A stretch of 64,000 nucleotides of DNA, from contig JAJDNB010000095.1 of assembly GCA_022340905.1 (NCBI GenBank), positions 10,967 to 74,966 on the forward strand. The letters are read 5' to 3'. The position numbers and the translations under genes are program-made. Below the pieces are notes generated by a model. That model saw only the letters and a list, made by a program, of their open reading frames with translations. It searched no databases and had not been told where the DNA came from. Source of the stretch: Deltaproteobacteria bacterium. GTDB lineage: Bacteria; Desulfobacterota; Syntrophobacteria; BM002. Positions within the stretch are counted from its first letter, which is position 1, and every line of letters begins with the position of its first letter. This document shows positions 26,823 to 28,858 of this stretch, piece after piece.

Positions 26823-27374
26823 ATGAAAAAGTTCGTCAAGCCCGCTATTTTCATCGTCATTGGTATAATTATCGCCTTTCCATTGTTCAGTCTCACCTAC
26901 TACACCATGGTGCGCACAACCACGCCCCAATTCTGCGCCACCTGCCACGAAATTCAATTTGCCTACAACACTTGGAAGACCTCCACCCATGTGAACAATG
27001 AACAGGGCTTTGTGGCCGACTGCATGGATTGCCATCTGCCGGCTCCGCACGACACCTTTAATTTTTTCTATGCCAAAACCTGGCACGGTGCTAAAGACGT
27101 CCTCCTCCACTTTTTCCAGAGCGAGTATGACCACGAAGAACAGCGACGTGAAGCCTATGCTTCCTTTAAGAATGACCAGTGTCAGAAATGCCATCGCAAT
27201 CTCCTTTATATTCCCAATAAACGTGGTGCTATGCTTGCTCACCGTGACGTGGTCTATGCCAGGCCCGGCTACGAGAAGAAATGCGTTGATTGTCATAAAA
27301 ACCTGGTTCACAACCCCAGAGAGTATTACGATTACAAACAATACGGAGAAACATACCGCGGTTTAGGTTCGTAA
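26823..27374 (+). CDS. NapC/NirT/NrfH-family membrane tetraheme cytochrome c quinol dehydrogenase
   Basis: N-terminal TM helix, then four CxxCH motifs (CATCH, CMDCH, CQKCH, CVDCH). ATG start at 26823 behind GAGGAA. The ORF track used an upstream TTG. Confidence 0.85.
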   Translation: MKKFVKPAIFIVIGIIIAFPLFSLTYYTMVRTTTPQFCATCHEIQFAYNTWKTSTHVNNEQGFVADCMDCHLPAPHDTFNFFYAKTWHGAKDVLLHFFQSEYDHEEQRREAYASFKNDQCQKCHRNLLYIPNKRGAMLAHRDVVYARPGYEKKCVDCHKNLVHNPREYYDYKQYGETYRGLGS

Positions 27375-27460
27375 CCAGAGTAATTAACATCACCGAAGTT
27401 GCCTGGAGTGCACAGTGGCACTCTGGGTGCCTGAGGTTAATCTAGAAAGGGGGTGAAGAA

Positions 27461-28858
27461 GTGAGAAGGTACCTGATTGCTTCGACTTTGGTTGCAGGGG
27501 TAATGGGCCTTTTTTTAGCGGGCAATGCGGTGGCTCAGGGCCAAAATGTTCCAAAGGTCAAGGAATTCAGGCTGGAGCGCAGTATGCCCAAAGAAGCAGT
27601 GGCCTGCATCGAGTGCCACAAAATTGTACATCCCGGCATTTTTGGTGATTGGGCCAACAGCAGACATGCCAGCGCCAATGTTACTTGCTACGACTGCCAC
27701 AAAGCAGAATCGTTCGATCCGGACGTGAGCAAGGAACATTACAAGCAGTACGAGCGGAGCGACATGAAATACGGCAGTAAAGATTACCGGGTGCCGGTGA
27801 CTGCGGTGGTGACACCCAAAGATTGTTCCCGTTGCCACCCTGATGAGGCCAAGCAGTATGCCAGGAGCAAGCACTCCAACACCTTGTACATCATTTGGCA
27901 GATAGATCCCTGGCTCAACAAGGGAATGAATAGCGATTTCGAACGAGCCAGCGGCTGTTTCCACTGCCACGGCACAGTGGTCAAAAAAACCAAAGACGGT
28001 GGGTTGGACCCACTGACGTGGCCTAATGTGGGGGTGGGACGGGTAAATATGGACGGCAGCTTGGGGAGCTGCACTAGCTGTCATACCCGACACCGGTTTT
28101 CGGTGATGGAGGCCAGGAAACCGGAGGCCTGTGGCCAATGTCACCTTGGCCCCGATCATCCGCAGATAGAAATTTACATGGAATCCAAACACGGAGACAT
28201 CTATACAGCCTTCGGTGACCAGTACAACTGGAATGCTGCACCGGGCACCTGGTCTGCTGGTGTTGATTTTCGAGGACCGACCTGCGCTGCTTGCCACATG
28301 TCTGGTGGAGGAACCGTTCTAACCAGCCACGATGTGACCGAGAGGCTGGCCTGGGAGTCTCAAGCCCCCTTGTCCATTAGGCCGGAGGATTTCAAACCAT
28401 TCCCCGCCAAGGTCAACCATGAGGTTGAACGAGAGAAGATGAAACAGATCTGCGAGCAGTGTCACGGCGACGAATGGGTGGACGGCCAATTCGCCATGTA
28501 CGACAAGGTAAACGAGGAATACAACGAGGTATACTTCAAACCCGCGAAGAAGATGCTCGGCGAACTCTATGAAAAGGGCCTGCTTGACAAGAGCAAGTTT
28601 TTTGATGAGGAACTCGAAGTGGAGTACTATGAGCTCTGGCACCACGAGGGCCGTAGAGCTCGATTTGGCGCGGCCATGATGGCTCCGGACTATGCCTGGT
28701 GGCATGGTTTTTATGAGTGCAAAAAGCGCTACAATAGCTTTATGGAAAAAGCTCGCGATCTCATAGAGCACAACAAAAAAGCGTATAAGGCTACCGACTA
28801 TCCCAATGCCACAGGGAATACCACTAGGCCTGCCGAGGTCTTTGACAAGTACAAGTAA
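27461..28858 (+). CDS. Octaheme cytochrome c of the hydroxylamine-oxidoreductase (HAO/epsilon-Hao/Otr) family, secreted
   Basis: Signal peptide followed by eight CxxCH motifs (CIECH, CYDCH, CSRCH, CFHCH, CTSCH, CGQCH, CAACH, CEQCH). No CxxCK, so not NrfA. Sits 86 bp downstream of the NrfH-like gene. Confidence 0.8.
   Translation: MRRYLIASTLVAGVMGLFLAGNAVAQGQNVPKVKEFRLERSMPKEAVACIECHKIVHPGIFGDWANSRHASANVTCYDCHKAESFDPDVSKEHYKQYERSDMKYGSKDYRVPVTAVVTPKDCSRCHPDEAKQYARSKHSNTLYIIWQIDPWLNKGMNSDFERASGCFHCHGTVVKKTKDGGLDPLTWPNVGVGRVNMDGSLGSCTSCHTRHRFSVMEARKPEACGQCHLGPDHPQIEIYMESKHGDIYTAFGDQYNWNAAPGTWSAGVDFRGPTCAACHMSGGGTVLTSHDVTERLAWESQAPLSIRPEDFKPFPAKVNHEVEREKMKQICEQCHGDEWVDGQFAMYDKVNEEYNEVYFKPAKKMLGELYEKGLLDKSKFFDEELEVEYYELWHHEGRRARFGAAMMAPDYAWWHGFYECKKRYNSFMEKARDLIEHNKKAYKATDYPNATGNTTRPAEVFDKYK

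Follow-up and report, generated by a model that had tools for sequence, protein, structure and literature searches.

Introduction

The octaheme εHao enzymes of Campylobacterota (Campylobacter fetus, C. curvus, Caminibacter mediatlanticus, as well as Nautilia profundicola) share eight hemes, a length of about 460 amino acids (aa), the lack of the cross-linking Tyr of hydroxylamine oxidoreductase (HAO) and a Trp/Met signature with the product of haoA. This is the second gene of a two-gene locus, haoCA, at positions 26823-28858 of a 64,000-nucleotide stretch of a Deltaproteobacteria bacterium (Desulfobacterota; Syntrophobacteria; BM002; GenBank assembly GCA_022340905.1, contig JAJDNB010000095.1, positions 10,967 to 74,966). 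The whole stretch of 64 kb is called the window throughout. Most εHao-encoding Campylobacterota reportedly carry a NapC/NrfH-family tetraheme gene immediately upstream, and HaoC is said to be the name given to this NapC/NrfH-type gene upstream of εHao genes. As judged from sequence, haoC and haoA of the window probably encode a HaoCA-type menaquinol:nitrite/hydroxylamine reductase module, which would reduce nitrite most likely to ammonium.

Passages of PMC8042395 and PMC9213671 relate that four Campylobacterota εHao reduced nitrite and hydroxylamine, with negligible oxidation of hydroxylamine. The εHao signature, according to a passage of PMC8940962 that quotes Haase et al. (2017), is a Trp at the Tyr position with a Met eight residues earlier, and Campylobacterota Hao form a distinct lineage in clade II (Speth et al., PMC9213671). 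In Nautilia, a nitrate reductase, HaoA, a NapC/NrfH/cM552-type cytochrome and the hybrid-cluster protein Hcp make up the gene set of a proposed pathway of nitrate ammonification, the reverse hydroxylamine:ubiquinone redox module (HURM; Hanson et al. 2013, PMC3701875); the partner corresponding to HaoC is named cM552/CycB in the reverse-HURM literature, and cycB lies at a separate locus in Nautilia (PMC3701875). The window resembles Nautilia in the co-occurrence of a nitrate reductase and hcp with haoA, and differs from the εHao systems in its Desulfobacterota host and in having Nar and a NarK-like carrier where Campylobacterota have Nap.

Among solved enzymes, the best relative of HaoA by sequence and fold was IhOCC of Ignicoccus hospitalis (4QO5), listed as an octaheme nitrite reductase (PMC9250108). 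Both lack the cross-link Tyr and both have an insertion between heme 4 and heme 5 (33 residues in HaoA vs. 6 in the Nitrosomonas europaea enzyme, NeHAO). However, at the position of the Asp-His of HaoA, NeHAO and Kustc0458, IhOCC has Asp-Val; its C-terminal motif reads DWTTFKRGW vs. DYAWWHGF in HaoA, about 60 inserted residues precede heme 8, and it fell in a separate clade of a rough neighbour-joining (NJ) tree. Kustc0458/0457 of Kuenenia stuttgartiensis (HAOr; 6H5L) is also Tyr-less and, like HaoA, has GPDHP as its Asp-His motif and Trp-Trp in the place of the Tyr, but unlike haoCA it has a dihaem partner, a proposed nitric oxide (NO) product and no heme-4/5 insertion.

NrfHA (Desulfovibrio vulgaris, 2J7A; Wolinella) is arranged as haoCA is, with a gene for a NapC/NrfH-family quinol dehydrogenase directly upstream of that for a periplasmic multiheme reductase. 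The catalytic subunits differ, HaoA being octaheme with His-ligated CxxCH motifs and NrfA pentaheme with CxxCK, without a significant fold match between them; HaoC differs from NrfH in having Ile in place of the heme-1 Met ligand. The oxidative HAO/HDH enzymes (Nitrosomonas europaea HAO, Kuenenia HOX and HDH) share with HaoA the octaheme fold, the heme order and the Asp-His dyad, but HaoA has no equivalent of their Tyr467.

Results

Layout of the gene pair

The initial annotation had described a four-heme membrane anchor gene followed by an octaheme cytochrome gene; the coordinates, the four and eight CxxCH motifs, the absence of CxxCK, the signal peptide and the 86-nt spacer were all confirmed. 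The features of the pair are as follows.

26823-27374, + strand: haoC (gene A, haoC-like), ATG start, GAGGA 8 nt upstream, 183 aa
27375-27460, + strand: spacer between haoC and haoA, 86 nt, with an 11-bp hairpin at about 27401-27428 and the Shine-Dalgarno sequence of haoA
27461-28858, + strand: haoA (gene B, haoA-like), GTG start, AGGGGG Shine-Dalgarno sequence, 465 aa
28897-28929, + strand: intrinsic terminator 3' of haoA, CCCCGCTCTTCC-TTAA-AGGGAGGCGGGG, then TTTTT

Both start codons were backed by homologs, which aligned from residue 1 with 100% coverage. A GC-rich hairpin plus T5 lies 39 nt past the haoA stop codon (terminator scan match at 28903-28919 plus the T-tail). No terminator was found between haoC and haoA, the spacer hairpin having no T-run, and the two genes therefore very probably form one transcription unit. 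The spacer contains the inverted repeat GAGTGC-N6-GCACTC (27406-27423), and its hairpin folded at -24.9 kcal/mol with a z-score of only -1.27 vs. shuffled sequences. Locus comparisons used the best 80 of the 477 stretches that encode a HaoA relative in a one-genome-per-species collection; 71 of these 80 loci, mostly of Desulfobacterales, had at least 700 bp of upstream sequence. Because the spacer varied from 11 to 319 nt among these relatives, its hairpin is probably not a conserved element. Only haoC and haoA had two or more heme-binding motifs among the open reading frames (ORFs) of the window, so the window contains no nrfA. An Rfam scan of the whole window gave no match.

Family and fold of HaoA

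HaoA has exactly eight CxxCH motifs (at residues 49, 76, 122, 166, 204, 224, 275 and 331), and its N-terminus resembles a Sec signal (MRRYLIASTLVAGVMGLFLAGNAVA/QG). A motif search found no CxxCK, no CX3-4CH and no CX15CH (none across CX11-17CH). The protein matched Pfam PF13447 Multi-haem_cyto (2e-30, 106.2 bits vs. a cutoff of 21.9). A single-sequence search of the PDB returned IhOCC (8e-47), Kustc0458 (4e-23), Nitrosomonas HAO (2e-22), Kuenenia HOX (2e-17) and HDH (1e-12); the eight best matches were all HAO-family, and there were no other significant ones. With a profile built from 36 diverse relatives, the matches were IhOCC (3.6e-118, full length), NeHAO (2e-56), Kustc0458 (1e-52), HOX (2e-41) and HDH (3e-33). 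ONR and NrfA gave short local matches only (6e-8 to 7e-4) in the profile search, and MccA gave E = 0.009 over 33 residues. Otr (Shewanella, 1SP3) was not matched in the PDB sequence search to E = 1, in the profile search to E = 0.01 or by Foldseek to E = 10.

The AlphaFold2 model of HaoA reached a predicted local distance difference test score (pLDDT) of 90.1 and a predicted template modelling score of 0.84 with an alignment of 146 sequences that included distant relatives; with just 28 close homologs, the pLDDT was 48. Foldseek against the PDB gave template modelling (TM) scores of 0.71 for IhOCC, 0.61 for Kustc0458, 0.59 for NeHAO, and 0.56 for both KsHOX and HDH (probability 1.00 for all five), 0.38 for ONR, and 0.23 and 0.12 for NrfA and MccA, the last two not being significant. 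Long C-terminal helices of the HAO type were predicted at 337-371, 384-405 and 409-437, and through these three helices HaoA would probably be trimeric.

By sequence and by fold, HaoA is in the HAO/IhOCC clade, which agrees with "clade 1" (HAO/HDH/IhOCC) of Soares et al. 2022 (PMC9250108). In the rough NJ tree it fell within a large "WHG-motif" radiation, apart from both the IhOCC clade and NeHAO/Kustc0458. Its best NCBIfam match was the HDH equivalog, yet at 72 bits against a cutoff of 900. The proposal of an HAO-family octaheme cytochrome instead of NrfA was thus borne out by PF13447, the PDB sequence matches and the fold, and the groupings that the initial annotation had named as contrary to its reading did not appear, Otr being undetected and MccA not significant.

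Three other identities for HaoA were rejected: NrfA or ONR (no CxxCK, weak local profile matches and low TM scores), MccA (no CX15CH/Cu-site motif, and neither the profile nor the fold match significant) and Otr (no similarity of sequence or fold).

Active site of HaoA

The heme-4 motif of HaoA is C166FHCH170. Counted in chain 4FAS, D267-H268 of NeHAO lies in GVDHNNW and Y467 in GGWTYTEGW; we take the former to be the catalytic Asp-His pair and the latter the cross-linking Tyr. The profile alignment placed D232-H233 of HaoA opposite D267-H268. The HMMER profile alignment placed Y467 opposite W413, just before the conserved Trp of the motif PDYxxWHG, and when the conserved Pro was taken as the anchor, with the one-residue gap left out, it fell opposite W414. 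Under either alignment, a Trp of the C-terminal stretch A412-W413-W414-H415-G416 occupies the Tyr position. Kustc0458 has S-W-W-W-G at this position, and its crystal structure has no cross-link (PMC8042395). The εHao signature was present in HaoA as M406 and W414, and M406, W414, D232 and H233 were each at least 90% conserved among 146 diverse relatives. Tyr411 and Tyr418 lie near W413/W414, and a structural role for them appears to lack support.

The initial annotation had read haoA as a reverse HAO and had left the cross-linking Tyr to alignment and the heme-4 ligands to be checked. The Tyr proved absent, with Trp413/Trp414 at the position of NeHAO Tyr467, and C166FHCH170 and D232-H233 appear compatible with an HAO catalytic site. 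Heme 4 would presumably be five-coordinate, its proximal ligand being a His, and the other seven hemes bis-His. Kustc0458 acts as a reductase only and oxidises neither hydroxylamine nor hydrazine (PMC8042395). Because the cross-link Tyr is absent, and on the biochemistry of Tyr-less relatives, HaoA is most likely a reductive, Tyr-less Hao in which no P460 cofactor is expected.

HaoC, a membrane-anchored tetraheme cytochrome

HaoC has four CxxCH motifs (CATCH, CMDCH, CQKCH and CVDCH) and, at its N-terminus, a hydrophobic helix (residues 4-22, the Kyte-Doolittle maximum), and it matched Pfam PF03264 NapC/NirT over residues 6-165 (5e-34, 117.9 bits vs. a cutoff of 24.1). The helix, the four CxxCH in about 180 aa and the score above the Pfam threshold place it in the NapC/NirT/NrfH superfamily. 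Scores against narrower models were 74.1 bits for the NrfH equivalog TIGR03153 (below its cutoff of 134.2), 73 bits for the TorC N-terminal region, which is near the NrfH score, and 50 bits for the napC_nirT model (cutoff 310). In an alignment to 2J7A chain C, CATCHEI of HaoC stood opposite the heme-1 motif CTSCHIM of D. vulgaris NrfH, in which the Met of CxxCHxM is presumably the proximal ligand. The heme-1 motif was CxxCHEI in all 71 full-length HaoC homologs, and none had the Met. Nine His were invariant among the homologs, which is enough for four His-ligated hemes.

The anchor had been annotated as NapC/NrfH-type; the family assignment holds (PF03264), and NrfH proper was rejected on the sub-cutoff TIGR03153 score and on CxxCHEI where NrfH has CxxCHxM. 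On these features HaoC is a NapC/NrfH-family protein for which "HaoC-like" is a better name than NrfH, and it is presumed to be a menaquinol dehydrogenase.

Distribution and conservation of the pair

At least 7,900 database proteins matched HaoA at E < 1e-5. The top 120 were 73-99% identical to it, and those named were from metagenome-assembled genomes (MAGs) of Desulfobacterales/Thermodesulfobacteriota; public labels of close homologs were "hydroxylamine oxidoreductase/dehydrogenase" and "multiheme c-type cytochrome". A HaoC homolog (70-93% identical) was encoded directly upstream of haoA on the same strand in 71 of 71 loci, and four of the nine loci with less upstream sequence still showed the 3' end of a haoC homolog. 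Clustering of ORFs across the 80 loci found no broadly conserved neighbour besides haoC, which makes haoCA a self-contained two-gene module. The 80 loci include those of the cultured Desulfacinum infernum, D. hydrothermale and Desulfatibacillum alkenivorans (two copies), and of MAGs assigned to Desulfonema limicola and Desulfatirhabdium butyrativorans.

The wider HaoA family comprised about 200 clusters at 50% identity (E < 1e-30), in phyla that include Planctomycetota, Chloroflexota, Marinimicrobia, Magnetococcales, KSB1 and Acidobacteriota. Searches from AT-rich distant representatives led to Marinimicrobia, Magnetococcales and KSB1 (from P0181) and to Chloroflexi and Firmicutes (from P0182). 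HAO-family proteins have been counted in 65 phyla and are commonest in Desulfobacterota (Speth et al. 2022, PMC9213671). The haoCA module is not rare, being present in hundreds of Desulfobacterota species; the family is widespread and annotated, and earlier work has noted how abundant it is in Desulfobacterota and anoxic mats (PMC9213671; PMC8940962). Viewed as a sequence feature, the haoCA pair is a sound observation at the level of annotation, and a fairly ordinary one.

Some longer relatives of HaoA (P0122, P0123 and P0134, of 727-734 aa, and P0374, P0377 and P0409, of about 726 aa) had nine CxxCH motifs and were extended at the N-terminus; in three longer relatives the extension matched Pfam PF05425, a fused architecture. 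Tyr-less HAO relatives were variously labelled: "nitrate reductase" in Chloroflexi and Firmicutes, "beta-ketoacyl-ACP synthase" in some Deltaproteobacteria MAGs, and elsewhere "hydroxylamine dehydrogenase" or "ammonia-forming cytochrome c nitrite reductase subunit c552". As a result of this mixed naming, KEGG-style counts of hao in metagenomes blend oxidative and reductive enzymes.

Genes for nitrogen oxide metabolism near haoCA

The complete reverse-HURM gene set (hcp, narGHJI, the narK-like gene, haoC and haoA) lies within 14050-28858, with Nar replacing Nap. Its members upstream of haoC are the following.

14050-15684, + strand: hcp, hybrid-cluster protein/hydroxylamine reductase (NCBIfam equivalog NF003658, 818 bits vs. 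a cutoff of 367)
16087-19770, + strand: narG, membrane-bound respiratory nitrate reductase (NarG equivalog, 1899 bits vs. a cutoff of 1084)
19760-21181, + strand: narH (Pfam domain)
21328-21870, + strand: narJ (Pfam domain)
21875-22558, + strand: narI (Pfam domain)
22662-23966, + strand: NarK-like MFS transporter (Pfam MFS_1; best model TIGR00886, 196 bits, below the cutoff of 311.7)

The equivalog and the Pfam N-terminal domain matched NarG from residue 6, leaving no room for a Tat leader. Since NarG leaves no room for a Tat leader and is accompanied by NarI, the cytoplasm would be the site of nitrite formation. Nitrite would then need export to the periplasmic HaoA, which gives a logical place to the NarK-like carrier, a presumed nitrate/nitrite exchanger. 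Here a Desulfobacterota HAO-family pair shares one island with genes for a respiratory nitrate reductase and a nitrate/nitrite carrier and with hcp, a contextual pointer to an N-oxide substrate.

Of the 80 loci, 10 had hcp within 6 kb of haoCA, and these were spread over at least five distinct branches of the HaoA tree; in five of them hcp was directly 3' of haoCA on the same strand. Genes for hemerythrin-domain proteins, Crp/Fnr-type regulators and a second prismane protein were near haoCA in five loci each, and one for a small ferredoxin in four. Other genes close to the pair in the window are given next.

24124-24801, + strand: FmdE-domain protein with a Cys-rich C-terminal tail
24975-25412, + strand: stand-alone PAS protein
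25528-26559, + strand: ORF of 343 aa, directly upstream of haoC
29180-31291, + strand: hybrid PAS histidine kinase/receiver 3' of haoA, kept there in the five closest loci

The FmdE-domain protein, the PAS protein and the hybrid kinase may be regulators of the island. Nothing in Pfam, NCBIfam or the PDB sequences matched the 343-aa ORF, even at E = 1. Its homologs (66-91% identical) adjoined haoCA in 7 of the 80 loci, which come from some four branches of the HaoA tree, a recurrence that hints that the ORF is functionally linked to haoCA.

Discussion

Proposed function of HaoCA

HaoC would be held in the cytoplasmic membrane by its single N-terminal helix and would oxidise menaquinol on the periplasmic side. 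The four hemes of HaoC would hand electrons on to HaoA, the soluble octaheme partner in an NrfHA-like complex, in which seven HaoA hemes would feed heme 4 (C166FHCH170). At heme 4, with Asp232-His233 as a possible distal proton relay, nitrite and also hydroxylamine would be reduced, most likely to ammonium. In the corresponding route from nitrate to ammonium, NarGHI would reduce nitrate in the cytoplasm, the NarK-like carrier would export nitrite, HaoCA would reduce it in the periplasm, and the cytoplasmic Hcp would clear leaked hydroxylamine or NO. We infer the substrate, the product, the HaoC-HaoA complex and the role, respiratory or detoxifying.

Several observations weigh against this assignment. 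Most of the 80 loci had no N-oxide gene nearby, and linkage to nar was confined to the closest (L003). Genes like cysE and cysK occurred near haoCA in 9-10 of the 80 loci, in several lineages, as frequently as hcp. A search for FNR/HcpR-type operators (TTGAC-N4-GTCAA) found no palindrome before haoC, though a perfect one (TTGACTTAAGTCAA, 13939-13952, in the divergent spacer between cooS and hcp) precedes hcp; the window-wide count of such palindromes was not above chance. The function of HAO-family proteins beyond the ammonia-oxidiser and Campylobacterota lineages is unknown, and sulfur substrates have been speculated upon (Speth et al., PMC9213671). The Desulfobacterota clade appears to be known from genes alone, with the assayed relatives outside it; the apparent likeness to the assayed Campylobacterota εHao is one of signature and gene order. 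Kustc0458, the closest solved enzyme to share both Asp-His and Trp-Trp, has been proposed to form NO in vivo (PMC8042395).

Alternative explanations

It is unlikely, but the best supported of the alternatives, that HaoCA carries out a four-electron reduction of nitrite that stops at free hydroxylamine, from which Hcp then makes ammonium in the cell, as in a strict reverse HURM. The presence of hcp in the same island and its recurrence by haoCA in 10 of the 80 loci are consistent with this scheme, which was proposed for Nautilia with expression and hydroxylamine-consumption data (PMC3701875), and hao and hcp were the top nitrogen-cycle genes in abundance in a hypersaline mat (PMC8940962). However, passages of PMC8042395 and PMC9213671 that relay Haase et al. 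(2017) describe the formation of ammonium from nitrite by purified εHao, and the Nautilia study itself left direct formation of ammonium possible (PMC3701875). Moreover, hcp was not nearby in 70 of the 80 loci, and Hcp is also a general enzyme of NO and hydroxylamine stress.

The related multiheme enzymes NrfA, MccA and Otr act on sulfur oxyanions. A reductase of sulfite, polysulfide, thiosulfate or tetrathionate that merely resembles nitrogen-cycle enzymes is a quite improbable identity for HaoCA. It would fit the abundance of the family in Desulfobacterota, many of them without known N-oxide use, the sulfur substrate proposed for Tharpellota homologs (Speth et al., PMC9213671) and the flanking of haoCA by cysE-like and cysK genes, once directly downstream on the same strand. 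It accords poorly with the missing CX15CH/Cu-site motif, with the recurrence of the hcp linkage in at least five lineages and with the assayed Tyr-less HAO relatives, every one of which was an N-oxide reductase (PMC8042395). The nar-narK-hcp setting in the window, together with the lack of similarity to Otr and of significant similarity to MccA, makes a sulfur substrate less likely here.

Slightly less probable again, and very doubtful, is a nitrite reductase that forms NO by a one-electron reduction, like the anammox HAOr (Kustc0458), with removal of the NO by Hcp or others. In both HaoA and Kustc0458 the Asp-His dyad (GPDHP) is present and Trp-Trp stands in place of the Tyr, Kustc0458 was the second-best structural match (TM 0.61), and it formed NO with a mild reductant (PMC8042395). 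However, its partner is the dihaem Kustc0457 in the anammoxosome and not a quinol dehydrogenase (PMC8042395). HaoA is far closer in sequence to IhOCC than to Kustc0458, and there were no nor or nos genes among the annotated parts of the window. To our knowledge, deliberate production of NO, which is toxic, has no known use in an anaerobe of the sulfate-reducer type.

The window carries Nar, Hcp, CooS and hgcA, all typical of anaerobes. This setting, the replacement of the cross-linking Tyr by Trp413/Trp414 (Tyr-less enzymes barely oxidise; PMC8042395) and the score of 72 bits against the HDH equivalog cutoff of 900 make an oxidative hydroxylamine/hydrazine dehydrogenase feeding the quinone pool (forward HURM) extremely improbable, despite the public labelling of close homologs as "hydroxylamine dehydrogenase/oxidoreductase" and a pairing of Hao with a NapC/cM552-type cytochrome as in ammonia oxidisers (PMC3701875).

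Implications

With HaoCA read as a nitrite/hydroxylamine reductase, it is conceivable, though on balance doubtful, that the Desulfobacterales-type HaoCA, and not NrfHA, is the working nitrite-ammonifying or nitrite-detoxifying enzyme of many sediment sulfate reducers, and that it completes a Nar-NarK-HaoCA-Hcp pathway in some lineages. If this were true, surveys based on nrfA would systematically miss a major guild of dissimilatory nitrate reduction to ammonium or of nitrite tolerance in anoxic sediments. In a more unusual variant of the HaoCA reading, compatible with the recurrent cysE and cysK, the physiological substrate may be a sulfur compound. The close homologs in the cultured Desulfatibacillum alkenivorans and Desulfacinum spp. 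make the function accessible to testing.

Other observations in the window and related loci

The loci with cysE-like (hexapeptide transferase) or cysK (PALP) genes were L020, L022, L026, L029, L045, L048, L051, L057, L065 and L067. Orientation and distance to haoCA varied among them; in L048, cysE begins 44 nt past haoA on the same strand.

Further annotated genes on either side of the island are listed below.

11636-13624, - strand: cooS, catalytic subunit of anaerobic CO dehydrogenase (TIGR01702, 604 bits), divergent from hcp
31690-32727, + strand: hgcA (NCBIfam HgcA_corrinoid equivalog, 452 bits vs. a cutoff of 275)
32496-33023, + strand: likely hgcB, an ORF for a ferredoxin with two [4Fe-4S] clusters, the true start of which is probably later

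CooS and Hcp are two prismane-family proteins in one island. After the mercury-methylation gene pair hgcA-hgcB come genes for a metal chaperone of the HMA type (33276-33482) and for a P-type ATPase (33588-36041). The five closest loci likewise had an hgcA-like gene, some 3.5 kb downstream of haoCA. A second perfect palindrome of the FNR/HcpR type (TTGACCTAGGTCAA, 9950-9963) was found 64 nt upstream of a 502-aa ORF (8378-9886, - strand), which had a weak MerR-like helix-turn-helix together with a domain resembling class III cyclases (Guanylate_cyc, 2e-5, 24.7 bits vs. a cutoff of 21.9).

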